Assembly (NCBI GenBank): GCA_035275285.1
Contig: DATENA010000271.1
Coordinates: forward strand, 53,354-117,353
Source: Fibrobacteria bacterium
GTDB taxonomy: Bacteria > Fibrobacterota > Fibrobacteria > UBA11236
Length of the DNA stretch: 64,000 bases
Direction of reading: 5' to 3'
How positions within the stretch are numbered: position 1 is the stretch's first letter; the number at the start of each line of letters is the position of its first letter. A program made the position numbers and the translations under genes. The notes under the pieces were generated by a model that saw only the letters and a list, made by a program, of their open reading frames with translations, searched no databases and had not been told where the DNA came from. This document shows, in pieces, positions 9,497-53,285 of the stretch.

Positions 9497-9950
9497 AGCC
9501 TCCGGCACGGTCCCGGTATCGGATCCCGGCGGCCCCCGGGAATTCGCGGCCGCCCTCATCGTGGACCGGGCCGGCGCGTTGCTCCTGCTCCGGCGCTCCC
9601 CTTCGACCCTGAGGTGGCCCGGCAAATGGGGGATAGCGGGAGGCGGAGTGGAAGCGGGCGAGACGCCCGAGCAGGGGTTGCGCCGGGAACTCCTGGAAGA
9701 GCTGGGAGCGGATATCCGCTTGCGGATCCTGCGCGGTCCCGATACCTTGAAGGCCATCGGCGGATACGGAGGCTTCATCCATCTCTGGCATATGCTGTGG
9801 GAAGGGGGGGACATCCGCCTGAGCGCGGAACACACCGAATACGCCTGGGTGGACCGGGCGGCCTACGCCGGCCTGGACATCATGCCCGGCGTCGACGAGG
9901 ATTTGACCCATTTCGGGATCTGGCCCGAGCGTGCGAAACGACCCGGTTGA
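9489..9950 (+). CDS. NUDIX hydrolase, overlapping the miaA 3' end
   Basis: Nudix box GGGVEAGETPEQGLRRELLEELG (Gx5Ex7REUxEExGU). The ATG at 9489 overlaps the miaA stop by 8 nt. Confidence 0.8.
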   Translation: MDEASGTVPVSDPGGPREFAAALIVDRAGALLLLRRSPSTLRWPGKWGIAGGGVEAGETPEQGLRRELLEELGADIRLRILRGPDTLKAIGGYGGFIHLWHMLWEGGDIRLSAEHTEYAWVDRAAYAGLDIMPGVDEDLTHFGIWPERAKRPG

Positions 9951-9988
9951 CCATGGTTGACTATATTTCCGCTACCGGAAGGAGCGCG

Positions 9989-10906
9989 ATGAAGATGAAC
10001 AGCAGCAGGGCGGACCGGGCCGCATCGGCGGTCCGCAACGGCGCCCTGATCGTGGCCGCCCTGGGCCTTTTCCAATGCGAGCGCACGGCGGTTTTCAACC
10101 CCAAGCCGCCGGACAAGGCGCATTACCGGGTCCATCACCTGGGCACCTACTCCAGCAAGCTCGACGAGGAAAAGGAAATCGAAGGGACCATCTTCCAGAC
10201 CACCCTTTCCTTCGATCTGGAAAGGCAGGGGACCGGTTGGACCCTGCGCCGCAAGCTGGATACCCTCATGGCCAGGGGCTACCACAAGTTCTCCATGCCC
10301 AATGAACTGGAGAAGAAGGTGGACCTGGTCCTCACCATGGATTCCACCCTCATCCCCGTGCGCGTGGACGGCTACGACTCCCTCAAAGCCGTTCTGGGCC
10401 GCATCCAGCAGAAAGAGGAATACCGGGCCGCCCTGCTCAAGTCCAGCGATACCGCCTTCTACCGCGCCGAGTGGCGCGATTGGTGGCGCATGAACCGGTT
10501 CCTGCCCATAGGGCGGAAGATCGAAGCCTTCCAGCCGCTTCCCGTGGACGCCCTCAACAAGACCCTGGAAACCCTGCAAACCGATTCCGCCCGCTTCGAC
10601 GGCCCCCGGCCGCGGCTCAAGAAGAATTGCCTGGACTATACCCTTTATTACCATCGCACGGACTCCCTGGCCTTGCTGATGGAGCAGTTCTATTTCTCCT
10701 CCATCCAGAACCGCAAGTACCGGAAATACTCCTGGGGCCCGTCCCTGATCAAGGGGACGTTGCAATTTTCCGTGGAACGGGAAACCGGCCTGCCTTGCTT
10801 CGCCTCCAAGTCCGAGATCTCCGATCTGCTGCTGGGGATGAAGGACGAGAAGGCCACCATGCCCATCCACCTCTATCGGTATGAAGAAGACCTGTACGAG
10901 TACTAG
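9989..10906 (+). CDS. Hypothetical secreted protein or lipoprotein
   Basis: RBS GGAAGGAG precedes the ATG at 9989. The N-terminus is MKMNSSRADRAASAVRNGALIVAALGLFQC (signal peptide, Cys after LFQ). No recognisable catalytic motif. Confidence 0.5.
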   Translation: MKMNSSRADRAASAVRNGALIVAALGLFQCERTAVFNPKPPDKAHYRVHHLGTYSSKLDEEKEIEGTIFQTTLSFDLERQGTGWTLRRKLDTLMARGYHKFSMPNELEKKVDLVLTMDSTLIPVRVDGYDSLKAVLGRIQQKEEYRAALLKSSDTAFYRAEWRDWWRMNRFLPIGRKIEAFQPLPVDALNKTLETLQTDSARFDGPRPRLKKNCLDYTLYYHRTDSLALLMEQFYFSSIQNRKYRKYSWGPSLIKGTLQFSVERETGLPCFASKSEISDLLLGMKDEKATMPIHLYRYEEDLYEY

Positions 10907-15249: not shown

Positions 15250-15375
15250 GGAGTGCAAAGTGCAAAAGTCAAAGTGCAAAATTCAAAATCAAGAAACGAA
15301 ACAATACGCATGCACTCTCCCTGGGCGCTCCCCATTTTGCACTTTGACTTTTGCACTTTGACTTTTGAATTTTTC
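15250..15375. repeat. Low-GC inverted-repeat element, copy 1. The arms are built from a tandem CAAAGTGCAAAAGT core; the central spacer is unique
   Basis: Left arm 15250-15293 reads GAGTGCAAAGTGCAAAAGTCAAAGTGCAAAATTCAAAATCAAG. Right arm 15334-15375 reads ATTTTGCACTTTGACTTTTGCACTTTGACTTTTGAATTTTT. The core GTGCAAAAGTCAAAGTGCAAAA is perfectly inverted between arms. It lies between a hypothetical gene's 3' end and the trmFO start, both on the minus strand. Confidence 0.8.
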
Positions 15376-23487: not shown

Positions 23488-24563
23488 AGATCCATACCCG
23501 CCACGTGCTCAAGGCGTTCCTGGGCCTTCTGCTCCTGACCGTGATCTCCATCGTGGTGATCTTCGTGGTCATCGATTTCGTCGGCAACAGCAAGATCTGG
23601 CTGACCCGGACCCCGAAAGAGGTGTTCCGCTATTACCTGGACTTCCTCCCGCACATCCTCTACCTGATCCTGCCCATCGCCATGCTGCTGGCTTCCGTCT
23701 TCTCCATCGGGAACATGTCCCGGAACCTGGAGCTCGTGGCCCTGCGCGCGGCCGGCGTCCCGGTGGTGCGCATTTTGGCGCCGATCCTCCTGTTCGGATT
23801 GATCGCCAGCGGGGTGATGTTCTGGTTCGAGGACGCCGTCCTGCCGGATGCGAACCACCGCCGCTACGAGATCAACGAGCCCAAGTCCCAGGACGGGGAC
23901 CAGGGCGGCGATCCCCTGGAGAAGTTCAATTACCTCTTCACCGCCTCGGACGGCATGGTGCTGTATTTCGATTTCTACTCGGGCCACCGCAACACCGGGC
24001 AGGGCATCACCGTCATCACCCAGCCCAAGCACGGGCCCATGGAAATGCGCATCGACGCCCGTTCCATGGCCTGGGACAAGGATCGCTGGCTGCTGCGGGA
24101 CGGCACCAAGCGGGTCTTCTACAAGGGCGTGCTGGAATCCTTCCCGTTCAAGGAACTGCCCTTTCCGGAGTTCAAGGACAAGCCCATGGACCTGCTGGAC
24201 GACCGCTCCTATCCGGAGGAGATGGGCATCCAGGAACTGGATCGCCGCATCGCCATCCTCAAGCGGTCCGGGGAGTCTTCCCGCGTCCTGGAGACGGAGC
24301 GCCACTTCCGCTTTTCCAGCAGCCTGGTGAACCTGTTCATGGCCCTGATAGGCACCGCCATGTCCGTCCATACGGTGAAATCGGGGTTGGCCCGCAACTT
24401 CGGCGTCGCCCTGCTGATCACCTTCCTGTATTACGTGGCCCTGCGCCTGGGCCTGGTCATGGGCCAGAACGGAAGCCTGTCCCCGGTGATGGGCGCCTGG
24501 CTCGGCAATCTCATCTTCGCGCCCCTGGGATTCCTGCTCCTCTGGAAGGCGGCCCGCGTGTGA
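23484..24563 (+). CDS. lptG: LPS export ABC permease, LptF/LptG family (second paralog)
   Basis: MKIHTRHVLKAFLGLLLLTVISIVVIFVVIDFV. The ATG at 23484 overlaps the upstream stop in an ATGA. 359 aa. Confidence 0.8.
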   Translation: MKIHTRHVLKAFLGLLLLTVISIVVIFVVIDFVGNSKIWLTRTPKEVFRYYLDFLPHILYLILPIAMLLASVFSIGNMSRNLELVALRAAGVPVVRILAPILLFGLIASGVMFWFEDAVLPDANHRRYEINEPKSQDGDQGGDPLEKFNYLFTASDGMVLYFDFYSGHRNTGQGITVITQPKHGPMEMRIDARSMAWDKDRWLLRDGTKRVFYKGVLESFPFKELPFPEFKDKPMDLLDDRSYPEEMGIQELDRRIAILKRSGESSRVLETERHFRFSSSLVNLFMALIGTAMSVHTVKSGLARNFGVALLITFLYYVALRLGLVMGQNGSLSPVMGAWLGNLIFAPLGFLLLWKAARV

Positions 24564-26341
24564 GCGGGCCCTGGTTTTTCCTCGCGGGCGCGTTCGCCGG
24601 CTTGGGATTCCTGGGCGGAAACTGGCGGCTGGCTTTCGTACCCGCGGCGGCCTGCCTCGTGCTCGCCTGGACCGGCGGCCGCGCCGCCCTGGGCCGGAAG
24701 AAAAACGGCGGATCGCCCACCCGCAAGACCTCAGTGGTGCCCCAGCAAGCCTTTCCGGAACCCTCCACGGAGGAGCGCCGCCAGGACACCACCCGCGCGT
24801 TCCTCAAAGGCGATATGGCCTTGGTGGGCAGCGAGGCCCAGGCCCGGGAAGCCCGCAAGCTGGCCCTGCGCGAACTGGAAGACAACATCGACGGCGCCAT
24901 CTTCGACGGGCTCGCGCTCCTGAAGCAGGCCGTTCCGGGCGGGCACACCTACGCGGTGCTGTTCCCGGGGAAGAACGACGGGCTCTACCTGCGCGCCTGG
25001 ATCACGGACAGCGGATCCGTGATTGCCGGGGCCGTGCTGAACAGCAACCAGGGCCTGGTGGGGCAATTGAACAAGGACGGCGTGCGCCGGGTGCTGGAAG
25101 GCGACATCGTGGCCGATTCCGCCCAATTGCACTACTACTCCGGCCACGACGGCGTGCGCTCCCTGGCCGGCGTCCCCATCCTGGTCAAAGGCGTCCGGCG
25201 CGGGGCGGTCATCGTCGACAGCCTGCGGGAGAACGCCTTCGACGCCCGGACCATCGAACGCCTGGATTCCCTGGCCAACCTGCTGGGGCATCTGGCCTAC
25301 CACGCCTACATGGCTTTCGAGCATGCCTATCACAAGGAGCAATTGGCGGCCCTGACCAGCTACCAGCGCAAATTCCTGGAGAACATGTCGGTCGAGAACA
25401 TCGTCACCCACGTGCAGAATTACATGGCCGAATGCCTGGAGGGCGATCGCTTCCTGGTGGTGGAGCGCGTTTCCCGCCAGGGCGACGACGCGCGCATCGT
25501 GAGCTGCATCGGCGCGGACGACAAGGAGATGCAGGGTCTCGGGTTCCGCCTCTCGGAGAAAGGCCTGGCGGCCCTGGCCTTCGAGAAGGAGCAGATCATC
25601 AACCGCGCGTTCCCGCCCACGCCGCACGTGCCCCGCTTCAGCCCCAGGGAAAAGGCCCACGGGCGCATGGCCAGCCTGCTGGCCGTGCCGGTGCCCACGG
25701 ACCAGGGCGTGGACATGGTCCTGATGGTGGAATCCGTCCGCCCCCGGCGTTTTTCCGAGCACCACCAGAACCTGCTTTCCACCATCGCCCGCGCGGCCGG
25801 CTTCGCCCTGTCCCGCGCCCGCCTCTACCAGGAGAAGGAGCAGCTCGCCAGCCGCGACGGGCTCACCGGGGTGGAGAACCACCGCACCTTCCAGGAGCGT
25901 TTCCTCAACGAGATCCTGCGCGCCCAGCGGTACGCTCACCAACTGGCCGTGATGATGATGGACATCGATCTCTTCAAGAAGGTGAACGATACCTACGGCC
26001 ATCCGGTCGGCGACCAGGTCCTCAAGGAAGTGGCCCGGATCATCTCCCAGAACATCCGCGCGGGCACCGATCTGCTGGCGCGCTACGGCGGGGAGGAGTT
26101 CGTGGTCATGCTGGCGGATACGGACCGGACCCGGGCGGGAGAGACCGCGGAGCGGATCCGCGAGAGCATCGCCGCCAAGGTCTTCGAATCCGGCACCGTG
26201 CGCTTCCAGGTCACCATGAGCATCGGCGGGGCCATCTACCCTTCCGATTCCCGCCACGGGCGGGAGATCCTGGAGAAGGCGGACAAGGCTTTGTACCGGG
26301 CCAAGGAGACGGGGCGGAACAGGCTGGTGTTCTACAATTAA
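24560..26341 (+). CDS. Membrane-anchored GAF-GAF-GGDEF diguanylate cyclase
   Basis: GTG start overlaps the lptG stop (GTGTGA). Two N-terminal TM helices, two GAF-like domains, and a C-terminal GGDEF domain with an intact RYGGEEF active site. Confidence 0.85.
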   Translation: MSGPWFFLAGAFAGLGFLGGNWRLAFVPAAACLVLAWTGGRAALGRKKNGGSPTRKTSVVPQQAFPEPSTEERRQDTTRAFLKGDMALVGSEAQAREARKLALRELEDNIDGAIFDGLALLKQAVPGGHTYAVLFPGKNDGLYLRAWITDSGSVIAGAVLNSNQGLVGQLNKDGVRRVLEGDIVADSAQLHYYSGHDGVRSLAGVPILVKGVRRGAVIVDSLRENAFDARTIERLDSLANLLGHLAYHAYMAFEHAYHKEQLAALTSYQRKFLENMSVENIVTHVQNYMAECLEGDRFLVVERVSRQGDDARIVSCIGADDKEMQGLGFRLSEKGLAALAFEKEQIINRAFPPTPHVPRFSPREKAHGRMASLLAVPVPTDQGVDMVLMVESVRPRRFSEHHQNLLSTIARAAGFALSRARLYQEKEQLASRDGLTGVENHRTFQERFLNEILRAQRYAHQLAVMMMDIDLFKKVNDTYGHPVGDQVLKEVARIISQNIRAGTDLLARYGGEEFVVMLADTDRTRAGETAERIRESIAAKVFESGTVRFQVTMSIGGAIYPSDSRHGREILEKADKALYRAKETGRNRLVFYN

Positions 26342-26367
26342 GGCGGTCTGGGGGATCGAGGAGAGAG

Positions 26368-26499
26368 AATTCAAAGTGCAAAAGTCAAAGTTCAAAGTGC
26401 AAAATGAAGAAGGGGGAGGCGACGGCCGATGCCGTACTTCTTTGCGTGCGTTTGTCTTAAATTTCGACTTTTGCACTTTGAACTTTGACTTTTGAACTC
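26368..26499. repeat. Low-GC inverted-repeat element, copy 2 (same family as 15250-15375)
   Basis: Left arm ATTCAAAGTGCAAAAGTCAAAGTTCAAAGTGCAAAATGAAG. Right arm ATTTCGACTTTTGCACTTTGAACTTTGACTTTTGAACTC. The spacer is unique and about 50 nt. It lies between the GGDEF gene stop and the tadA start on the + strand. Confidence 0.8.
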
Positions 26500-26515
26500 C
26501 ACCCGAAAGACCACG

Positions 26516-27007
26516 ATGTTGCTCCCTCCCGACGACGAATACTTCATGCGCCAGGCCCTGCGCGAGGCGCAAGGCGCCTATGAAGAGGGTGAAGTGCCCA
26601 TCGGCTGCGTGATCGTGAAGGCGGGGAAGATCCTGGGCCGCGGCCGCAACCACATGGAAACCCTGCGGGACCCCACCGCGCACGCGGAGATCCTGGCCCT
26701 GGGCGCCGCCAGCGGGGCCCTGGACAATTGGCGCCTGGACGGCTGCACCCTGTACGCCACCCTGGAGCCTTGCCCCATGTGCGCCGGGGCCATCCTCAAC
26801 GGCCGCATCGCCAAGGTGGTCTACGGGTCCAAGGACAAGCGCCTGGGCGCCCTGGGGTCCGCCTACGATATCCTGACGGACAATCCCCTGAACCGCTCCA
26901 TCGAGGTGGTGGGCGGCGTGCTGGCGGAGGAATGCCTGGACCTGTTGCGGTCCTTTTTCCAGGAGAGGCGCAAGCGTCCGGCGAAATCCGCCCCCGAAGA
27001 AGGATAG
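26516..27007 (+). CDS. tadA: tRNA-specific adenosine deaminase TadA
   Basis: CMP/dCMP deaminase zinc motifs HAEILAL and PCPMCAGA. ATG at 26516; the ORF-track start at 26492 is a TTG lying inside the repeat arm. Confidence 0.88.
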   Translation: MLLPPDDEYFMRQALREAQGAYEEGEVPIGCVIVKAGKILGRGRNHMETLRDPTAHAEILALGAASGALDNWRLDGCTLYATLEPCPMCAGAILNGRIAKVVYGSKDKRLGALGSAYDILTDNPLNRSIEVVGGVLAEECLDLLRSFFQERRKRPAKSAPEEG

Positions 27008-27219: not shown

Positions 27220-27375
27220 TCCGGACCGGGGTGCCGCAAGCCTTGGGCGCCGGCCCGCCAATAGGTATATTGGCTCTGCTCATCCTGGAAGGCGCAGACC
27301 TCACGCAATTGACGCGAGCTGAACCCCGCCAGGACGAAAGTAGCAACGGTAGGCATCAACTCAATGTGCCGTGTC

Positions 27376-27475
27376 GAAGTCTGCCGCCAACCGGGATGAG
27401 CACCTCCTTTTAGAACATCCCGGTTGGCGCGCTGACCGGGATGAGCACCCCCTTCTAGAACATCCCGATCAGCGC
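27376..27475. repeat. Two tandem, near-identical hairpin units (13-15 bp stem, 17-nt loop) in the 630-bp region upstream of the hybrid kinase gene
   Basis: Unit 1 is GCCAACCGGGATG-agcacctccttttagaa-CATCCCGGTTGGC. Unit 2 is GCGCTGACCGGGATG-agcacccccttctagaa-CATCCCGATCAGCGC. They share the CCGGGATG / CATCCCGG core. Confidence 0.75.
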
Positions 27476-27641
27476 GCCGGCCGGCGCCTATCCTCCTCGC
27501 CGCATTCCGTTTTTCCTCTTTTGGGTTTTCCCCGGAGCTTTGGGATTCCATCCCCCGGTGAGGAATTTTTTTGTGCGGTCCGAAACGGAAAAAGAATAAT
27601 TAGGGCTTCAGGTCCCGACCCGGGTCCGCCGAAGGGGTTGA

Positions 27642-29579
27642 ATGGCGCTGGAAAGACGGAAACTGCTGCTTGTCGAGGATGAGGCCTTGGTGGCCCTGGA
27701 TTTGAAAAGGCGCTTGGAGGGAATGGGGTTCGAAGTCGCCGGGCAGGCGACCACGGGAGAGGAAGCCATCCAAAAGGCCCTGGCGATCCAGCCTTCCCTG
27801 GTCCTGATGGACATCCGGTTGGGGGGCCTGGTGGACGGGATCGAGGCCACGGAAATCATCCGCCGGCGCCTGGACGTTCCCGTGGTCTATCTCACGGCCA
27901 ATTCGGATGAAGCCACCTTGCGCCGCGCGCGCATCACGGAGCCCCATGGATTCGTCCTCAAGCCCATCCGGGATCGGGAATTGCGCATCGCCATCGAGAT
28001 GGCCCTGTACCGGTTCAGGGCCGAGGCCGCCATGCGCGAGAGCCGGGAGTGGTTTTCCGCCATGCTCAGCACCGTCAGCGAAGCCGTCATCGCCAACGAT
28101 AAGGACGGCGCCGTGCGGCATATGAACCATGCGGCCGAGCGATTGACGGGGTGGAGGGAAGAGGAGGCCCGGGGCCGGCCGCTGACCGAGGTGGTCCGTT
28201 TCCTGGATGAGTCCGCGCGCGCGCCGGCCCAGGAATCGGCTTCCGGGACCAGGATCATGGACCGCACCGTGGTGACCGCCCGGGACGGGGCCGTCCGCGC
28301 CGTCGAAGAGCGCTTCGAAACCGTGCGCGGCCTGGCGGCGGACGTGGAAGGAGGCGTGTCGGCCTTCCGCGACGTGAGCGAACGCCGCAACCTGGAAAGG
28401 CAACTGGCCCAGAAGCACAAGATGGAAGCCATCGGCCGGCTGGCGGCCGGGGTGGCCCACGATTTCAACAACCTGCTCACGGCCATCATCGGATACAGCA
28501 ACCTGGCCTTGCTGAAAGCCGGCGAGCGGGACGCGACGCGCGAAGACCTCTCCCAGATCAAGGAAGCCGGGGAAAGGGCCGCGGAACTGACCCAGCAATT
28601 GCTGGCCTTCAGCCGGCGGCAGATGCTGACTCCCACCGTGGTGGATCTGGGCGTGATGACCCGCAACATGGAAAAGCTCCTGCGGCGGCTCATCGGCGAG
28701 GACGTGGAGATCCTCACCAGCGGCGACCAGCCGCTCTGGGCGGTGATGGCGGATCTGGGCCAGATGGAACAGGTGCTCGTGAACCTGGCCGTGAACGCCC
28801 GCGACGCCATGCCGCAAGGCGGCAAGCTGGTCGTGGACACGCGGAACTTCCGCCTCGACGCGAACGCCGTGCCGCCCCAGGAGGACATGACCCCCGGGGA
28901 CTACGTGGTGCTGGGCGTCGCGGATACGGGCAGCGGGATGGACGAATCCACCCGTTCCCATCTGTTCGAACCCTTCTTCACCACCAAGGCCCCCGGAAAG
29001 GGCGCGGGGCTGGGACTGGCCACCGTGTATGGGATCGTCAAGCAAAGCGACGGTTATCTCACCGTGCAGTCCGAGCCGGAGCGCGGGTCCGTGTTCAAAA
29101 TCTTCCTGCACGCCACCTTCGAACCTGCCCGCCAATCGGCAGGCCCCCGGCCCCAGGCTCCGGCGCCGCGCACGGAGGGCAACGAGACCATCCTGGTGGT
29201 GGAGGACGAAAAAGCCGTGCGCAACTTCCTGCGGGATTCCCTGGAACGCAGCGGATACCGGGTGCTGGAGGCGGGTTGCGGGCAGGAAGCCCTGGAAAAG
29301 GCCGCGGAGGCGGCTTCGCGGGGTGGAACGCTCCCGGGCAACGAGGGCGAGATCCGCCTGCTGCTGACCGACGTGGTGATGGCCGGCCTGAACGGGCAGG
29401 AATTGGCGGAGGAGGTGCTCGGCCTGCTCCCCGGAGTCAAGGTGCTCTACATCTCGGGGTATACGAACCAGGGCATCGTCAACCGGGGTTCCCAGGGCGG
29501 CGGGCCGGACTTCCTGCGCAAACCCTTCACGCCCATGGAACTGTCCCGCAAGGTGAGGAACGTCCTGGACGGGCAGTGA
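27642..29579 (+). CDS. Hybrid sensor histidine kinase (REC - PAS - HisKA - HATPase_c - REC)
   Basis: N-terminal receiver domain (LLLVEDEALVALDL ... LMDIRL), a PAS region, an H-box (AHDFNNLLTAIIGYS), ATPase G-boxes (GSGMD, GLGLA), and a C-terminal receiver (ILVVEDEKAVR ... LLLTDVVM). Confidence 0.88.
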   Translation: MALERRKLLLVEDEALVALDLKRRLEGMGFEVAGQATTGEEAIQKALAIQPSLVLMDIRLGGLVDGIEATEIIRRRLDVPVVYLTANSDEATLRRARITEPHGFVLKPIRDRELRIAIEMALYRFRAEAAMRESREWFSAMLSTVSEAVIANDKDGAVRHMNHAAERLTGWREEEARGRPLTEVVRFLDESARAPAQESASGTRIMDRTVVTARDGAVRAVEERFETVRGLAADVEGGVSAFRDVSERRNLERQLAQKHKMEAIGRLAAGVAHDFNNLLTAIIGYSNLALLKAGERDATREDLSQIKEAGERAAELTQQLLAFSRRQMLTPTVVDLGVMTRNMEKLLRRLIGEDVEILTSGDQPLWAVMADLGQMEQVLVNLAVNARDAMPQGGKLVVDTRNFRLDANAVPPQEDMTPGDYVVLGVADTGSGMDESTRSHLFEPFFTTKAPGKGAGLGLATVYGIVKQSDGYLTVQSEPERGSVFKIFLHATFEPARQSAGPRPQAPAPRTEGNETILVVEDEKAVRNFLRDSLERSGYRVLEAGCGQEALEKAAEAASRGGTLPGNEGEIRLLLTDVVMAGLNGQELAEEVLGLLPGVKVLYISGYTNQGIVNRGSQGGGPDFLRKPFTPMELSRKVRNVLDGQ

Positions 29580-29624
29580 GGCCGCCGCTTCACGCAAGCC
29601 CGATGCAGGAGGAGAGATGCGCAT

Positions 29625-31169
29625 TTGCTGAAGCGTGAGCAATGGATGGATCTGGCGCGGAAACTGGATTGGAACTTTTCCTATGTCGAGGAAAAGGATG
29701 TCTATCCGGAGGAAGCCGCGGGAACCCCCTGGCTCCCCCAGCAGGCCTGGGCCGCTTGGGACGAACCCTATCGCACCTCCTACTCGGAGTACGTGAGGGG
29801 CCAAGCCGCCAAGGAAGCCTCGGTCAAGGCGGTCCGGGAGGCCATCGGCAGGCCGGAAGACTTCGAGCGCCTGCCGCGCCCGTGGCTCAGCGCGCTCAAG
29901 CTCCATGGCGCCACCTTGCCCCTGGCGGAATTCGCGGCCGTGATCGGGAACCTCCGGGCCGGCCGCTTCGCGCGCGCTTCGGCATGGCGCACCACGGCGG
30001 CTTTCGGGGCCCTGGACGAATTCCGCCATACCCAGATCCCTTTGCTGCTCATGCACGGACTGGTGCCATGGGACCGGCAATTCGACTGGACGCACAGGTT
30101 CTTCCATACCGGCAACTGGGTCGCCGTGGCCGGCCGCCATCTCGCGGATGAGCTCCTGCTCTGTTCCAATCCCATCGAATTCGCGGTGGGCACCAACTTC
30201 GTCTTCGAAACCGGCTTCACCAACATGCAATTCATCGGCTTGGGCTCCCTGGCGCGCCGGACCGGGGACCGGATGTTCGAACAGATGGTGAACAGCATCC
30301 AGACCGATGAGGCTCGGCATGCCCAGATCGGCCGGCCGGTGCTGGAAATCCTGAGGAAGCATGATCCGGCGTATGCGCAGCGCCTGGTGGATAAATGGTT
30401 CTGGCGGAGCTGGCATTTCTTCGCCGTGGTCACCGGTTTCGCCATGGATTATCTGACGCCCCTGGAGCACCGGACCGCCTCCTTCAAGGAATTCATGGAA
30501 GAATGGGTGCTGGATCAGTTCCAGCGCTCCCTGGACGAGGCGGGCCTGCGGAAGCCCTGGTATTGGAACGAATTCCTCGCATCCCTCGATCATTACCATC
30601 ACATGGTCTATGCGAGCGCGTACACCTATCGCGCCACCGTCTGGTTCGACATGGCGGTACCCTCGCCGGCCGAGCGGGAATGGCTGGCGGAGAAATACCC
30701 CGCGTCCTGGAGCCAATACGCCCCCATCTGGGATCGCATCGATCAGCGCTGGAAGGAAAGCGGACCGGGGGTGGAATGGCATACCCACGGCGCGACCCCG
30801 GTGGGCTTCTGCGACCTCTGCCAGATGGTGCTGTGCGCGGGCAGCCCGATGGCCAATTCGGCCCGGGTGGTGGGGCACGGAGGCCGGAAATACATCTTCT
30901 GCTCCGATCCTTGCAAGTGGATCTTCGAGGCGGAGCCGGAAAGATACGCTTCCCACAAGGACGTGGTGAAGCGGATCCTCTCCGGCGAGGCCCCGGCCAA
31001 CCTGCTCGAACTCATCAAGCATTTCGGATTGACCGCCGACGAGTGGGGAAAGGACGCGTACCGGGGAGGGTACCCCTGGATGCGCGGGACCGCGGGAAGA
31101 AAGAACGGCGGGGATGGCGACGGGGAGGGACGCTTGAACGGACGTCCCCAGAAGGTCCGGAAGGACTGA
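29625..31169 (+). CDS. tmoA: Soluble diiron monooxygenase hydroxylase alpha subunit (toluene-4-monooxygenase TmoA / alkene monooxygenase-like)
   Basis: Diiron ligand motifs DEFRH and TDEARHAQ, plus FETGFTNMQFIGL. Collinear matches to TmoA include WNFSYV, WDEPYRTSY, MDYLTPLEHRTASFKEFMEEW, KPWYW and the C-terminal KYIFCSDPCKWIFEAEPERY. A TTG at 29625 preceded by AGGAGGA is the likely start; an ATG at 29646 is the alternative. Confidence 0.85.
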   Translation: MLKREQWMDLARKLDWNFSYVEEKDVYPEEAAGTPWLPQQAWAAWDEPYRTSYSEYVRGQAAKEASVKAVREAIGRPEDFERLPRPWLSALKLHGATLPLAEFAAVIGNLRAGRFARASAWRTTAAFGALDEFRHTQIPLLLMHGLVPWDRQFDWTHRFFHTGNWVAVAGRHLADELLLCSNPIEFAVGTNFVFETGFTNMQFIGLGSLARRTGDRMFEQMVNSIQTDEARHAQIGRPVLEILRKHDPAYAQRLVDKWFWRSWHFFAVVTGFAMDYLTPLEHRTASFKEFMEEWVLDQFQRSLDEAGLRKPWYWNEFLASLDHYHHMVYASAYTYRATVWFDMAVPSPAEREWLAEKYPASWSQYAPIWDRIDQRWKESGPGVEWHTHGATPVGFCDLCQMVLCAGSPMANSARVVGHGGRKYIFCSDPCKWIFEAEPERYASHKDVVKRILSGEAPANLLELIKHFGLTADEWGKDAYRGGYPWMRGTAGRKNGGDGDGEGRLNGRPQKVRKD

Positions 31170-31180
31170 AGGACCGGGAG

Positions 31181-31435
31181 ATGCTGGTCCCCCTGTACGG
31201 ATTCATGCGCGGCGACTGCCTGGGACTGATCGTCCTGGTGCACGATACGGATCCGGTGGCCCACATCGCCGAGACCCTGGCCCAGGCCGCGGGCATGCGG
31301 GTGGTCCCGCGGCCGGGAGGCTCCGTGTACGCGGACGGCAAGCGCTTGGATCCGGGGCTCAGCGTGGCCCAGGCGGGACTGACCGCCTTGGACCGGGTGG
31401 ACGTGATCCCGGAGGAGCACGTGTGGCCTGGATGA
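31181..31435 (+). CDS. tmoB: Monooxygenase small subunit, TmoB-like (gamma)
   Basis: 84 aa. IVLVHDTDPVAHIAETLAQAAGMRVVPRPG ... GLTALDRVDVIPEE aligns with the TmoB pattern (VVVDLNDSMDQVAEKVAYHCVNRRVAPREG ... GLNPTEVIDVVFEE). Confidence 0.7.
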   Translation: MLVPLYGFMRGDCLGLIVLVHDTDPVAHIAETLAQAAGMRVVPRPGGSVYADGKRLDPGLSVAQAGLTALDRVDVIPEEHVWPG

Positions 31436-31752
31436 AAGCCGAAGGCATGGGGGATCTGTGGGACGGGGAAATGCGTCCGTGCCTGGTGCTGGGCATGCGC
31501 GTGCTGGTCCTGAAACAGGATGGGGTCGTCCATGCCTATGCGGACGCCTGCGCGCACCTGAAGGTCCCCCTCAGCGAAGGCCGCTTCGAAGGCGGCGTCC
31601 TCACGTGCCGCGCCCACGAATTCCGGTACGATGCCGCCACGGGCGCGGGACTGAACCCCAGGACGGCCAGGCTGGAACCCTATGCGGCGAAACTGGAAGG
31701 AGGCCAGGTGTGGATAGACCTGACCCTGGGAACGCCTCCGGCGCCTCCGTGA
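31432..31752 (+). CDS. tmoC: Rieske [2Fe-2S] ferredoxin component, TmoC-like
   Basis: Rieske CxH...CxxH motifs (CAHLKVPL and CRAHEFRYD). About 106 aa. ATGA overlap with the tmoB stop. Confidence 0.8.
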   Translation: MKAEGMGDLWDGEMRPCLVLGMRVLVLKQDGVVHAYADACAHLKVPLSEGRFEGGVLTCRAHEFRYDAATGAGLNPRTARLEPYAAKLEGGQVWIDLTLGTPPAPP

Positions 31753-32045
31753 CGGCCAAGGAAGGAAGCGGCGCGATCCGGGGACCGGGCCCGGTGCTGA
31801 TCGCCGGGGAAGCCTCCCAGGCGGTGCTGGAGGCGATGAAATCCCTCAACCGCAACCTCTCCGTGCTGGATAGGGGCTCCTATTGGCGCGTATCCTCCGC
31901 TTCCGGCTGCCGGCTCACGCGCGCGGCCGTCGAAAAGCGGCTCGGGAAACCGTTCCTCATGCCGGGCGATCTGGAAGCGCTGATGCCGTCCTTCTCGGGA
32001 CGTTTCCGCGTCACCGAAGAAGAGGCCCGGTGGGAGGAGGGATGA
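31749..32045 (+). CDS. tmoD: Monooxygenase effector/coupling protein, TmoD/MmoB family
   Basis: 98 aa. LTRAAVEKRLGKPFLMPGDLEALMPSFSGRF aligns with the TmoD [30 protein letters not shown]. The GTG start overlaps the tmoC stop in a GTGA. Confidence 0.7.
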   Translation: MTAKEGSGAIRGPGPVLIAGEASQAVLEAMKSLNRNLSVLDRGSYWRVSSASGCRLTRAAVEKRLGKPFLMPGDLEALMPSFSGRFRVTEEEARWEEG

Positions 32046-33019
32046 CGCCGCGCCGGACCTGGTGGAACCTGGAGAGTTCCGCGCGCAAGCCTTCGGACTA
32101 CGAGATCGCCTCCACGGATCTGCTGTACTATCCCAAGCTCGGCTTCGAAGTCAGGACCCCGCTGGAGGAGTGGCACCGCAAATTCCAAGCGGGGTCGCCC
32201 CTGGCTTGCGCCGATTGGGATCGCTTCCGCGATCCCGCCGAGCTGACCTATTCGCGTTACGTAGAAGCGCGCCGGGACAAGGAAATCTACGTGGACGGCC
32301 TCTTCAACGCCGCCGAGGCGACCGGTCACGATCATAAGCTGTCCGGAGAATGGCTGCAGCTGATGGATCGCCTCCTCTGCCCGTTGCGATACCCCTGGCA
32401 CGGGCTGCAGATGGCCTCCTCCTATCTCGGCAGCATGGCCCCGGGCGGGCGCATCGCCATCTGCTTCCTGCTGCAGACCGGCGACGAGATCCGCCGGATC
32501 CAGCGCATCGCCTACCGCATGCGGATGCTGATGGAAACGCGGCCGGGCCTGGGCGCGGAAAGCCGGTATTGCTGGGAATGGGAACCGGCATGGCAACCCC
32601 TGCGGCGCGCCATCGAGCGCCTCCTGGTGACCTACGACTGGGGGGAAGCGTTCGTGGCGCTGAACCTTTCCCTGAAGCCGGCGCTGGACGAAATGTTCCT
32701 GATCCATTTCGCCAGGGCCGCGGCCCGTTCCGGGGACGAGGTGCTGGGAAAGCTGTTCCTCTCCTTCCACGAAGATTCCCGCTGGCAAAGGGAGTGGAGC
32801 GCGGCCCTGGTGCGGATGCTGGTGGCCGGATCCCCCGAGAACGCGAAGTCGCTCCGGGAATGGATCGCCCGCTGGCATCCCATCGCCGAAACGGCCGCCC
32901 TGGCCTTCGCGCCCGCCCTGTGCGCCCCGGGACAGGACGCGGATTTCATCCGCGACGGGATCCGGGGCGCCTTGGGCGTGGCCGGCATGATGCCCAGGGA
33001 GGCGGTCCATGCGGCCTGA
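32042..33019 (+). CDS. tmoE: Monooxygenase hydroxylase beta subunit, TmoE-like
   Basis: 325 aa, all-helical, of typical beta-subunit size and in the position after the effector. The ATG at 32042 overlaps the tmoD stop in an ATGA. It lacks the full diiron ligand set, as expected for a beta subunit. Confidence 0.65.
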   Translation: MTPRRTWWNLESSARKPSDYEIASTDLLYYPKLGFEVRTPLEEWHRKFQAGSPLACADWDRFRDPAELTYSRYVEARRDKEIYVDGLFNAAEATGHDHKLSGEWLQLMDRLLCPLRYPWHGLQMASSYLGSMAPGGRIAICFLLQTGDEIRRIQRIAYRMRMLMETRPGLGAESRYCWEWEPAWQPLRRAIERLLVTYDWGEAFVALNLSLKPALDEMFLIHFARAAARSGDEVLGKLFLSFHEDSRWQREWSAALVRMLVAGSPENAKSLREWIARWHPIAETAALAFAPALCAPGQDADFIRDGIRGALGVAGMMPREAVHAA

Positions 33020-34730
33020 GGCGGGCATTCCGGAAAGCTCGGAAAGCGAGGCGCGCTTCCGCACCATGGCGGACTGCGCCCCCGTGCTCATTTGGATGGC
33101 CGGCGTGGACGCGGAATGCGTCTTCTTCAACCGGGGTTGGCTGGAGTTCACGGGCAGGCCCCTGGAGGCGGAACTGGGCGTGGGATGGGCGGAAGGCGTC
33201 CATTTCGAGGACTTCCAGAATTGCATGCAGGCGTACCTGGGCTCTTTCTCGGCCCGCAAACCCTTCCGCATGGAATACCGCATGCGGCGCGCGGACGGCC
33301 GGTTCCGCTGGGTGCTGGATACGGGCGTGCCCCGGTTCGAAACCGGCGGGATCTTCGCGGGATTCATCGGCTCCTGCATCGACATCACGGACATCCGCGA
33401 GGCCAACGAGGCCCTGTCGCGCAACGCCGGCCAGTTGGAGATACGGGTGCAGGACCGCAACCGCGAGCTGGAGGCCTCGAACCGGGAGTTGGAACGGTTC
33501 AACCGGTTGATGGTGAACCGGGAGCTGAAGATGATCGAGCTCAAGAAACAGGTGAACGCCCTGTCCGCGGAACTGGGACGCGCGGAGCCTTACGGGATCC
33601 CGGCGGACAAGGTTCCGGGCGGCGCGGTCCCGGAAGGGAACGCCCCGGAAGGAAAGGACGCGGCGGAAGAACTGGCCGCGCAAAGGGCCGCGGCCTTGAA
33701 CCTGGCGGGAGACGCCGAAGCCGCGCGCCAGAAAGCCGAGAAGGCCCAGGCCCAGTTCCGGGCCCTGCTGGAGGCCGCCCCGGACGCCATGGTGGTGGCG
33801 GATCGACGGGGGGATATCGTGCTCATCAACGGGCAGACCCGCCGCCTGTTCGGCTTCGAGCGGGAGGAATTGCTGGGCCGATCCGTGGAGCTGCTCATGC
33901 CGGAAAAGCCGCAAGGGGAGGGGAGGCAAGGCGGCCTTTTCAACCAGGCCAGGCTCAAGGAGATGGGAAGCGGCTACGAGGTGACCGCCCTCCGCAAGGA
34001 TGGGGGAGGCTTTCCCGCGGAAGTGTCCCTGAGCCCCATGGAGTCCGAGGACGGCATCCTCGTCATCGCCGCCATCCGGGACATGACGGAGCGCAAGAGC
34101 GCGGAGGAATCCATCCGCAAGTCCCTGCTCGAAAAGGAAGCGCTGCTCAAGGAGATCCACCACCGCGTCAAGAACAACCTGCAGATCATCTCCAGCCTGC
34201 TGCGCTTGCAGGCCGAACGCATCGTGGATAAAAGGGACCTGGCCATGCTCCGCGAGAGCGAGGAACGGGTGAATTCCATGTCCCTGATCCATGAAATGCT
34301 CTACCAGAGCAAGGACCTGGCGCGCGTGAATTTCGGGGGCTACGTCCGCAATCTCACCGCGGAGCTGCTCCAGACCTACGCCACCGGTTCGGCCCGCATC
34401 GATCTGGACCTGCAGGTGGAAACCCTGGAACTGGACATCAACCGGGCCATCCCCTTGGGCCTTATCATCAATGAACTGGTTTCCAACGCGCTCAAGTACG
34501 CTTTTCCCGGGACCCGCTCCGGCACCCTTTCCGTCCGGCTCGCCTCCGCCTCGGGGGAATTGACGCTGGAAGTCCGCGACGATGGCATCGGGCTGCCCCC
34601 GGATTTCCAGGAGCGCCGCAAGTCCTCCCTGGGCCTGCAGATAGTCGAATCCTTGTGCCGGCAAGTGGGCGGGCGGCATGCGTTCGAGGGGGAGAAAGGC
34701 ACGCGCTTCCGGATGAGCGCCCCGATCTGA
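33009..34730 (+). CDS. Cytoplasmic PAS-PAS sensor histidine kinase, HisKA_2/HWE-type
   Basis: Two PAS-like regions (LIWMAGVDAECVFFNRGW..., MVVADRRGDIVLINGQTRRLFGF), then an H-box IHHRVKNNLQIISSLLRLQ and an ATP-binding domain. No receiver or TM segment. Its start overlaps the tmoE 3' end by 11 nt. Confidence 0.85.
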   Translation: MRPEAGIPESSESEARFRTMADCAPVLIWMAGVDAECVFFNRGWLEFTGRPLEAELGVGWAEGVHFEDFQNCMQAYLGSFSARKPFRMEYRMRRADGRFRWVLDTGVPRFETGGIFAGFIGSCIDITDIREANEALSRNAGQLEIRVQDRNRELEASNRELERFNRLMVNRELKMIELKKQVNALSAELGRAEPYGIPADKVPGGAVPEGNAPEGKDAAEELAAQRAAALNLAGDAEAARQKAEKAQAQFRALLEAAPDAMVVADRRGDIVLINGQTRRLFGFEREELLGRSVELLMPEKPQGEGRQGGLFNQARLKEMGSGYEVTALRKDGGGFPAEVSLSPMESEDGILVIAAIRDMTERKSAEESIRKSLLEKEALLKEIHHRVKNNLQIISSLLRLQAERIVDKRDLAMLRESEERVNSMSLIHEMLYQSKDLARVNFGGYVRNLTAELLQTYATGSARIDLDLQVETLELDINRAIPLGLIINELVSNALKYAFPGTRSGTLSVRLASASGELTLEVRDDGIGLPPDFQERRKSSLGLQIVESLCRQVGGRHAFEGEKGTRFRMSAPI

Positions 34731-52204: not shown

Positions 52205-53065
52205 ATGCCCATCGCCAACGCCCTGAACCCCAGGCATTACCTGGGGCTCGTCCGCTTTTCCCACACCCTCTTCGCCATGCCGTTCGCCCTGGCCTCCATG
52301 GTCTGGGCGGCCCAAGGCCTCCCGACCCTGCGGGTCTTCCTGCTCATCGTGCTCTGCATGATCACGTGCCGCAACGCCGCCATGGCCTTCAACCGCCTCA
52401 TCGACGCGGACATCGACAAGGACAATCCCCGCACCGCCCGGCGCCATCTGCCCGCCGGCATCCTGAGCCGGGGCCAGGTCGCGGCGTTCCTCGTCCTCAA
52501 TGCCCTGGTCTTCATCGCCGCCACCTGGTTCGTGAACCGGCTCGCCTTCGCCCTGGCCGTTCCCGCCTTGATCGTCGTATGCGGGTATTCCCTCACCAAA
52601 CGGTTCACGTCCCTGTCCCACTTCTTCCTGGGACTGGCCATCGGCATTTCCCCGGTGGGGGCGTGGATAGCCGTCCGGGGAGGCTTCGCCTGGGAGCCCA
52701 TTCTCCTGTGCCTGGCCCTGCTGCTGTGGATCGGCGGGTTCGACATCATCTACGCCACCCAGGATCATGAATTCGACAAGCAACGGGGACTGCACTCCCT
52801 GGTGGTCCGCTTCGGAGTGAAGGGGGGGCTCCTGGTTTCCAAGCTGTCCCATTCGGCGATGTGGGGGGTGCTGCTCGGCTTGGGTTGGTACGGAGGCTTG
52901 GGCATGCCGTATCGCATCTGCCTGGCGGTGGTGGGGGCCATGCTCCTCTATCTCCACCTGTTCCGCCGCAGCGATTCCCTGGACTCGATGAACCAGGATT
53001 TCTTCCTGGCCAATATCGCCGTGAGCCTGTGCGTGATGGTGGGAATCGGGGGGTGTTTCCTTTAG
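52205..53065 (+). CDS. UbiA-family aromatic prenyltransferase (UbiA/MenA/MqnP-like)
   Basis: Asp-rich motifs NRLIDADIDKDNPRTARR and YATQDHEFD, and about 8 predicted TM helices. 286 aa. Confidence 0.8.
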   Translation: MPIANALNPRHYLGLVRFSHTLFAMPFALASMVWAAQGLPTLRVFLLIVLCMITCRNAAMAFNRLIDADIDKDNPRTARRHLPAGILSRGQVAAFLVLNALVFIAATWFVNRLAFALAVPALIVVCGYSLTKRFTSLSHFFLGLAIGISPVGAWIAVRGGFAWEPILLCLALLLWIGGFDIIYATQDHEFDKQRGLHSLVVRFGVKGGLLVSKLSHSAMWGVLLGLGWYGGLGMPYRICLAVVGAMLLYLHLFRRSDSLDSMNQDFFLANIAVSLCVMVGIGGCFL

Positions 53066-53183: not shown

Positions 53184-53285
53184 GGAGTCGGGAGTCGGGA
53201 GTTGAAGAAAAGAGAAAGCATGCCGGGCATGCTCCCAGGCCGGTTTTCACGGCCTCTTTTCTTCAACTCCCGACCCCCGACTCCC
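53184..53285. terminator. Very long imperfect hairpin (about 31-bp stem, 39-nt loop with an inner palindrome) between convergent genes
   Basis: Left arm GGAGTCGGGAGTCGGGAGTTGAAGAAAAGAG (53184-53214). Right arm CTCTTTTCTTCAACTCCCGACCCCCGACTCCC (53254-53285). There is one mismatch, and the loop contains GCATGCCGGGCATGC. It lies between the ubiA-family gene (+) and a small outer-membrane-protein (OMP) gene (-). Confidence 0.45.

Follow-up and report, generated by a model that had tools for sequence, protein, structure and literature searches.

Intergenic repeats built of seven-nucleotide units (heptamers) have long stood without an explanation in cyanobacteria, Xanthomonas and Beggiatoaceae. Here we describe a clean case of such repeats, in which orthologous loci can be compared. 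The element in question, which we call copy 2, is an inverted pair of heptamer arrays around a short centre. It lies between a gene for a GGDEF diguanylate cyclase and tadA, in a stretch of 64,000 nucleotides (nt) from a Fibrobacteria bacterium (GTDB lineage Fibrobacterota; Fibrobacteria; UBA11236; assembly GCA_035275285.1, contig DATENA010000271.1, positions 53,354 to 117,353 of the forward strand). We refer to this whole stretch as the window; a sister element, copy 1, lies elsewhere in it, between smg and trmFO. Since copy 2 was gained, its two arms have been kept nearly unchanged and complementary to each other, while its centre has drifted beyond recognition.

The closest described systems are of four sorts. 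In Xanthomonas, each genome carries 70-75 convergent inverted pairs of GGGAATC heptamers, about 90% of which are intergenic and most of which are transcribed (Rehm et al. 2015; PMC4692102). These pairs mostly lie between co-directional genes, nearer the upstream open reading frame (ORF); at a given locus their length and sequence vary between related species, and no function was found (PMC4692102). The elements described here share with them arms of tandem 7-nt units (typically about four or more in Xanthomonas), the arrangement of two convergent arrays on opposite strands at short spacing, and an intergenic position near the 3′ end of the upstream ORF (18 nt from it in copy 2, the class median also being 18 nt). 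They differ in host phylum and in the unit itself, which is G-rich and quadruplex-forming in Xanthomonas and A/T-rich here (TTCAAAG, TGCAAAA, GTCAAAG). They differ as well in unit number, which ranges from 2 to 26 in Xanthomonas and is fixed at about six in 12 copies from Fibrobacterota.

The short tandemly repeated repetitive (STRR) sequences of cyanobacteria and the TAACTGA repeats of Beggiatoaceae, cyanobacteria and Bacteroidetes are likewise intergenic tandem heptamers of patchy cross-phylum distribution and unassigned function (MacGregor 2015; PMC4679880). The TAACTGA sets are almost all direct rather than inverted (169 against 1) and lie in forward orientation just upstream of start codons (PMC4679880). 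The tandem-heptamer make-up, the intergenic position and the patchiness are common to these repeats and to ours, whereas the elements here are inverted pairs and their units are unlike the published STRR units.

MITEs (miniature inverted-repeat transposable elements) such as Correia/NEMIS, ERIC and Nezha are small and non-coding, with terminal inverted repeats, shared interiors and flanking target-site duplications. Our elements resemble them in their terminal inverted repeats, their intergenic position, their insertion polymorphism and the RNA hairpin that could form upon co-transcription, but have neither a target-site duplication nor, in the 12 Fibrobacterota copies, a shared interior. Finally, Bertels and Rainey (2011) describe repetitive extragenic palindromic (REP) doublets forming hairpins (REPINs) and bacterial interspersed mosaic elements (BIMEs) as two conserved inverted arms around a less conserved spacer, dispersed and able to form a long hairpin (PMC3116915). 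There and in a second account, the REP arm is an imperfect palindrome of 20-40 nt with a GTAG/CGTC tetranucleotide, tied to a gene for a REP-associated tyrosine transposase (RAYT) (PMC3733652, PMC3116915). Like REPINs, the elements here are extragenic, about 100-140 nt long, dispersed in many copies, free of target-site duplications, and gained and lost between relatives; unlike REPs, their arms are heptamer arrays that are not self-complementary and carry no GTAG/CGTC at the ends, and no RAYT gene came to light in the 64-kb window, no search aimed at one having been made. The kind of element is thus already known but unexplained, and what is new is the unit family and its hosts. New as well are arm conservation above the neutral rate, a fixed length with covarying positions, and a polarity and vocabulary of units shared across phyla.

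Copy 2 forms a palindrome of about 140 nt (window positions ~26360-26500). A preliminary description, made from the window's letters, had seen an inverted repeat at this site, and it is there: the core arms (26375-26404 and 26469-26498) are 30 nt long, complementary at 29/30 positions (97%) and separated by 64 nt. Beyond the core the palindrome extends outward through GGAGAGAGAA...GAACTCC and inward through TGAAGAA...TCTTAAA. The core arms of copy 1 (15256-15282 and 15334-15360) are 27 nt long, complementary at 27/27 positions (100%) and 51 nt apart. Between the two copies the arms are 87-91% identical, in line with the earlier account of near-identical arms. The same account gave a differing centre of roughly 50 nt; the truly unrelated centre of copy 2 measures about 40 nt, the palindrome reaching further inward. 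What had been overlooked is that the arms are arrays of imperfect tandem heptamers, about six in each, of the form NNCAAAR in the left arm and YTTTGNN in the right. Tandem Repeats Finder detects an array of period 7 in each arm of the two copies, for copy 2 at 26373-26404 and 26470-26498. With up to two mismatches allowed, the 14-mer CAAAGTGCAAAAGT occurs 7 times in the window against 0.16 expected, a number reached by 0/100 shuffles, and a looser form, CAAARNNCAAAR, is found 15 times where 0.33 would be expected, all 15 within copies 1 and 2. The region 26342-26520 has a predicted fold of -68.8 kcal/mol (z = -5.09 against shuffled sequence) in which the right arm pairs with the left. Because the same element sequence is found on two independent public assemblies, an assembly artefact is ruled out. 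Neither the window nor the 180 fetched loci contain a further match to the centre of copy 2, apart from the contigs that carry the same sequence (L048, L049), and no donor for a centre sequence was found in the window or the fetched loci.

The history of copy 2 can be read from a comparison of the GGDEF-tadA locus between the window and six related genomes in which synteny is kept (L050-L055). The stop-to-start gap measures 174 nt in the window and 150 nt in the closest relative (L050, TadA 92%), with the element present in both. In the other five the gap is 44 nt (L051, TadA 87%), 57 nt (L052, 86%), 3 nt (L053, 82%), 21 nt (L054, 81%) and 6 nt (L055, 80%), and there is no element. Since these five relatives have gaps of 3-57 nt without it, copy 2 was acquired by the ancestor that the window organism shares with its closest sampled relative, within a short operon-like gap. 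Between these two genomes the left arm is identical at 46/47 positions (98%) and the right arm plus flank at 53/60 (88%), against an identity of merely 0.57-0.69 at four-fold degenerate sites of the flanking genes; the centres, of 41 nt and 36 nt, are unalignable. The contrast of conserved arms and variable centre drawn in the preliminary description is therefore real, with arms conserved well above the neutral rate between orthologous copies and a centre that drifts. The differing centre is what neutral drift leads one to expect, and it is the constancy of the arms that wants explaining.

At trmFO the window shares the element with one relative (L058, TrmFO 88%), with arms about 92% and 85% identical and a centre about 62% identical. 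A second relative (L056, TrmFO 94%) has at this site (9932-10000) a degenerate piece resembling the right, T-rich arm only, and a third (L057, TrmFO 90%) has a lone A-rich array, GCAAAAGTCAAAACTCAA, adjoining the ATG (9970-10000). In a fourth (L059, TrmFO 86%) the genes overlap and there is no element. Judged from their sequence, the half-elements in L056 and L057 suggest deletion of one arm together with the centre and not precise excision. Copies at other loci have been gained, have decayed and have been lost on the same timescale. In the other orthologous pairs among the fetched loci the arms match or exceed the flanking coding sequence in conservation, and the centre is less conserved than either.

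Further copies at other loci in related Fibrobacterota genomes bear out an element family, as the preliminary description had proposed, and neither chance nor a local duplication. The arms of 12 Fibrobacterota copies, from at least nine loci, align without insertions or deletions, whereas their centres (~20-95 nt) are unrelated. The left consensus is AGAaTTCAAAgtgCAAAgttCAAAGTtCAAAGTGCAAAaTGAAGAg and the right consensus TCTTcAAtTTTGaatTTTGCACTTTGaaCTTTGActTTTGcAcTCTccC, with CAAA/TTTG invariant at a 7-nt phase; the left arm of copy 2 aligns in this way to the 11 other copies, with CAAA invariant in every unit. The motifs common to the 12 copies are AGAGTTC...GAACTCT at the ends and TGAAGAG...TCTTCAA on the inner side. 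The fixed unit number and these common non-repeat end motifs would not be expected of a freely slipping microsatellite and point to a defined, copied unit. The two arms also covary: they pair in 92.3% of the cells of the alignment against 87.8% in shuffles, and changes on both sides are found in 20 cells against 10.0 expected (0/500 shuffles reach the observed value in either case). The covariation score is 0.200 against 0.126, and pairing falls to 52-55% when the partner is slid by one column.

Relative to genes, the Fibrobacterota subfamily has a weak polarity. At the inner junction the left side reads CAAAATG-AAGA and the right side TCTT-C-AATTTTG, a one-base asymmetry that gives a G:U pair at column 57/135 in 11/12 copies. 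In orthologous pairs, conservation is higher in the stop-proximal arm. With so few and so interdependent loci, we draw no conclusion from this polarity. Two other apparent regularities were discarded. A shared orientation with respect to the gene follows trivially from the palindrome, in which the A-first order reads alike on both strands, and the closer matching of arms within elements than between them (19.4 against 17.5 of 21) comes from a biased test, the elements having been found by complementarity.

The approximately 64-kb window holds two elements of this CAAAR type and one of a GGAGTCG type (Table 1), whereas about 150 kb from eight related genomes contains no such elements, so that their abundance is lineage-specific. 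The GGAGTCG element is built of (GGAGTCG)x3 and TGAAGAA AAGAG, followed by a 39-nt centre with two small G+C-rich hairpins and then the complement. Its inner TGAAGAR unit is common to the CAAAR family and to many elements of other phyla.

Table 1. Coordinates of the elements and neighbouring genes in the window, counted from its first nucleotide.
Feature	Position	Strand	Description
Left arm of copy 2	26360..26411	+	Stop-proximal, A-rich; terminal GGAGAGAGAA, then TTCAAAG TGCAAAA GTCAAAG TTCAAAG TGCAAAA TGAAGAA
Variable centre of copy 2	26412..26452	+	GGGGGAGGCGACGGCCGATGCCGTACTTCTTTGCGTGCGTT; unique, G+C like host
Right arm of copy 2	26453..26500	+	Start-proximal, T-rich; TGTCTTAAATTTCGAC TTTTGCA CTTTGAA CTTTGAC TTTTGAA CTCC
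Copy 1	15251..15375	-	Fills the DUF494(smg)-trmFO gap; fold -57.2 kcal/mol, z = -5.24 against shuffled sequence
Third palindrome, other unit	53184..53284	.	31-nt arms, 97%; period-7 arrays; downstream of UbiA-family gene
GAF-GGDEF diguanylate cyclase, upstream of copy 2	24560..26341	+	Pfam GGDEF 1.9e-49, GAF_2 4.4e-20; syntenic in six relatives
tadA (tRNA adenosine-34 deaminase), downstream of copy 2	26516..27007	+	Pfam deaminase domains; 163-aa database gene call on public contigs
UbiA-family gene	52205-53065		Pfam UbiA

Elements of this build are not confined to Fibrobacterota. An exact 19-mer of the arm is found on 47 contigs of a one-genome-per-species collection, against about 4 expected. 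These contigs come from Fibrobacteria, Acidobacteriota/Terriglobia, Bacteroidales, Nitrospirae, Thermodesulfobacteriota, WOR-3 and Saccharibacteria, and from several independent metagenome-assembled genomes (MAGs) of archaea of the anaerobic methanotroph group ANME-1/Methanophagales. Most of the matches have the arm-centre-arm build. The two-arm pattern is found on at least 120 metagenome contigs, with a G+C content of 0.31-0.71 among the matches listed. When single arms were searched on either strand, the A-rich array came first in 19/19 cases and the reverse order in 0 (p = 4e-6), some copies of this set being related to one another. No recent transfer is needed to account for the cross-phylum matches, because the unit vocabulary is small; it is the sharing of that vocabulary and of the polarity across phyla that calls for explanation.

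Three groups of sequences from this wider class have features of their own. In phage and plasmid collections, BLAST returned one unannotated phage contig and one plasmid match, from Calothrix sp. NIES-4105 (AP018292.1, 39.87-40.0 kb; L180), which has the arm-centre-arm build with (TTCAAAA)n, ATTGAAGAAG, a centre and (TTTTGAA)n, a point in common with the cyanobacterial repeats. An outer inverted repeat, GGCGCCACTC...GAGTGGCGCC, surrounds the Calothrix element, for which the record has no annotation. On contigs of ANME-1/Methanophagales (L003, L005, L020, L023, L026, L027, L041 and L042) there is a multi-copy element with the same ATGCAAAGTGCAAAAGTCAAAG arm, a centre of about 75 nt that is conserved as well, and a GCTCAAAAACC...GGTTTTTGAGC hairpin at its flank. 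This element is near-identical across several independent MAGs and so has the look of a true MITE or of a small RNA gene. Contigs of Acidobacteriota/Terriglobia carry nested heptamer palindromes (L013 at ~280-480, L015 at ~760-900, L007 at ~1020-1200), in which outer arrays such as GGCAGAT/ATCTGCC or GCAGAGA/TCTCTGC surround (GCAAAAG)n/(CTTTTGC)n, giving potential stems of 60-70 bp.

Our preferred reading, to which we give about an even chance, is that copy 2 is one copy of a dispersed, REPIN-like palindromic hairpin element which is co-transcribed with its neighbours and is not a dedicated regulator of tadA or trmFO. The comparisons above show the dispersed family and its build: each arm is a fixed block of about six heptamers, 5′-(NNCAAAR)n and then (YTTTGNN)n-3′, with the A-rich array always first and a short unconstrained centre. 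Most likely copy 2 is transcribed together with the flanking genes, because the gap in relatives is too short for a promoter and terminator of its own; the transcript would then form an A-U-rich hairpin of about 30-40 bp ending 15 nt before the tadA start. The same sequence could extrude as a DNA cruciform. By analogy with REPs and REPINs, it would behave as a structural repeat that for the most part maintains itself, and would be either tolerated or of mild use as a hairpin in the mRNA between cistrons, at which processing or stability would be set, and would spread by copying of the hairpin-forming unit. Nothing links copy 2 specifically to control of the adjoining gene. The gain in an operon-internal gap and the constancy of the arms near synonymous saturation, together with the free centre, the fixed arm length, the covariation and the units and polarity that recur across many phyla and in archaea, argue that some process, whether selection or active copying and correction, acts on these hairpins.

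Several points weigh against this reading. No target-site duplication distinguishes the filled sites (window, L050) from the empty ones (L051-L055), nor is there one at trmFO, and the flanks extend the palindrome instead. Among the loci fetched, neither a mobilising enzyme nor an autonomous partner nor a master copy was found. The 12-copy set holds three orthologous pairs, which somewhat inflates the shuffle test, and both the covariation and the arm conservation could stem from arm-to-arm gene conversion or template switching without selection. The invariance of CAAA/TTTG exceeds what pairing needs and suggests some sequence-specific constraint. Among 142 oriented elements there is no sense-strand wobble bias (G:T 101 against A:C 85, p = 0.27) and the loop skews are null; with no skew in mismatches or loops, the data do not set selection on the sense RNA apart from selection on DNA, or from selection on neither of the two. 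The statistics on gene context given below come from a crude home-made gene caller, checked on known cases only. Lastly, what we propose on the transcription, processing and phenotype of the element is drawn from sequence comparison.

Other explanations have to be weighed against the same evidence. A classical MITE would be a non-autonomous transposon whose heptamer arms are terminal inverted repeats, to which a DDE transposase from another locus would bind, perhaps at more than one site in each end. Such an origin would agree with the insertion polymorphism at orthologous sites and with arms that, at many loci, are of fixed length and end in conserved motifs. The constant A-first order (19 to 0) is also what one inherited end structure would produce, and the ANME-1 MAGs do hold many near-identical copies, centre included. 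We nevertheless hold it to be unlikely, given the missing target-site duplication, centres without relation across the whole set of Fibrobacterota copies and without a second match in the window, and the frequency of lone arrays and half-elements. Among the fetched loci, moreover, there is no convincing case of arm pairs 0.3-3 kb apart that enclose a candidate transposase.

Doubtful too is an origin in situ without mobility, by which a heptamer repeat born of slippage would be duplicated in inverted orientation by template switching and then kept alike by arm-to-arm correction. It has to explain how an element of about 130 nt came to stand where the five relatives have a gap of 3-57 nt and lack any precursor array. 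Free slippage would also not be expected to give unrelated loci the same non-repeat end and inner motifs and the same unit number, without insertions or deletions. On the other side, many heptamer units, lone arrays and nested palindromes occur on the same contigs, remnants persist at orthologous sites (as in L057, beside the ATG), and orthologous arms can pair in shifted registers. The over-representation of heptamers in bacteria has been ascribed to polymerase slippage (PMC4692102).

Gene context bears on the next two alternatives. The preliminary description had argued from a common insertion context, the gap between co-directional genes, and this proves uninformative: gaps with an element are co-directional in 63 cases, convergent in 6 and divergent in 6, against 493, 70 and 85 among gaps without one. 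Relative to this baseline from the same loci there is no context bias (Fisher p = 0.15), of a terminator-like or a promoter-like sort, and the argument carries no weight, most gaps being co-directional in any case. An excess of gene starts beside elements, given by a first classifier, was an artefact of shadow ORFs and disappeared with filters on G+C content at codon positions (GC1>GC2) and on purines and with the same-loci baseline. The median distance from the upstream stop codon to an element is 18 nt, and that from an element to the downstream start codon is 30 nt.

A bidirectional intrinsic terminator or operon insulator, with a core hairpin richer in G+C set between an A-rich and a U-rich block, so that either strand would read alike, is very unlikely. 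The A-first, T-last order is the one that such a terminator needs, the elements are nearer the upstream stop than the downstream start, and the centre of copy 2 contains a weak, terminator-like sub-hairpin of 5 bp (26422-26435). However, convergent gaps are not enriched (6/75 against 70/648), the loops fold no better than shuffled sequence (mean z = -0.49), and their G+C content is not raised over that of the genome. The region has 22 terminator-like sites, a number not above chance (15.9 +/- 4.1). An intrinsic terminator has a short G+C-rich stem-loop followed by a U tract, and the element has instead an A-U-rich stem of 30-40 bp and a centre of 40-64 nt. It stands, moreover, upstream of tadA, a generally essential gene, in a gap that in relatives leaves no room for a separate promoter.

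As to the NNCAAAR/YTTTGNN vocabulary, which keeps its 7-nt phase from Fibrobacterota to Acidobacteriota, cyanobacteria and ANME-1 archaea, there is a slight chance that it is imposed by a universal host factor reading single strands seven bases at a time, and not inherited from one mobile ancestor. A protein with a cold-shock domain (Csp) or another oligonucleotide/oligosaccharide-binding (OB) fold is the candidate, on account of the likeness of the T-arm units to the CspB consensus GTCTTTG/T. If true, the hairpins would be genome-wide, chaperone-titrated intercistronic switches, and the over-representation of heptamers in prokaryotic genomes would be explained as well.

In Bacteroidota, of the Fibrobacteres-Chlorobi-Bacteroidetes (FCB) group, the promoter consensus is TTTG at -33 and TAnnTTTG at -7. 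That the T-rich arm, with TTTG at a 7-nt phase (21 nt being three units), should be an outward promoter of this type driving the downstream gene is highly improbable, although the host is a member of Fibrobacterota, TTTG blocks face outward on both strands and the arms end 15-30 nt before start codons. The same arms are present in Acidobacteriota, Nitrospirota and archaea, which have different promoters; divergent gaps are not enriched (6/75 against 85/648); consensus scans found no sigma-70-like site in the arms; and copy 1 would leave almost no leader ahead of the start codon.

CspB of Bacillus subtilis prefers the heptamer 5′-GTCTTTG/T-3′ (PMC1904285), and one protein is reported to be bound per heptamer of a direct repeat (PMC4679880). 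Least probable of all is that the U-rich arm is a phased binding array for a cold-shock-domain or other OB-fold protein, which would compete with the A-rich arm and so make a chaperone- or temperature-sensitive switch: the T-arm units (G)ACTTTTG, CACTTTG and AACTTTG resemble the CspB consensus and CAAA/TTTG is invariant beyond pairing needs, but the case is purely one of resemblance, the same genomes hold further heptamer families, among them GGAGTCG and CTGCCTA, that share the architecture and not the motif, and the broad class has no sense-strand bias.

Two further candidates were tried and rejected. Rfam 15 gives no match at the gathering threshold, and in E-value mode returns only look-alikes of eukaryotic microRNA (miRNA) precursors at 15-31 bits, against thresholds of 54-211; such sub-threshold hits are the generic behaviour of long hairpins, and a known RNA family was rejected. 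A leader peptide or small ORF in the centre was rejected too: the four tadA and trmFO copies have ATG/GTG ORFs of 18, 30, 9 and 6 codons, and the lengths, frames and sequences of these ORFs are not conserved. A search of the available literature for the repeat sequences as strings returned no paper.

The genes around both copies are as the preliminary description had them, Pfam matches agreeing with a GGDEF/GAF protein ending at 26341, TadA, DUF494 and TrmFO, and the window's TadA and TrmFO are 100% identical to proteins of Fibrobacteria MAGs at NCBI. The TAA stop codon of the GGDEF gene (26339-26341) precedes the palindrome by 18 nt. That description had also placed the start of the tadA ORF at a TTG (26492) within the right arm. 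The TTG does lie in the arm, but the true start is the ATG at 26516, backed by the database gene call and by six orthologues with the conserved N-terminus ML(L/T/Q)PPDDEYFMRQALREA; the element therefore ends 15 nt upstream of tadA, without coding overlap. For annotation this means that the TTG "start" within the arm is spurious and that such elements are best masked before starts, promoters or small RNAs are called.

Downstream of tadA, positions 27385-27484 hold 2.2 tandem copies of a 45-nt unit, each a 14-bp hairpin (CGCCAACCGGGATG...CATCCCGGTTGGCG). These repeats start at the 3′ end of a signal recognition particle (SRP) RNA gene (Rfam match 27292-27389) and could be a terminator or an integration site. 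Beyond them, a block at ~27642-34730 encodes a hybrid histidine kinase, a phenol/toluene-type multicomponent monooxygenase (Phenol_Hydrox, TmoB, Rieske, MmoB) and a PAS kinase. On one side it is bordered by tadA with the SRP RNA gene, on the other by the peptide deformylase gene, def; in four of the relatives (L052-L055) def directly follows tadA, and the closest relative (L050) has only a kinase at this place. The block looks like an accessory island inserted beside the SRP RNA gene and the 45-nt repeats.

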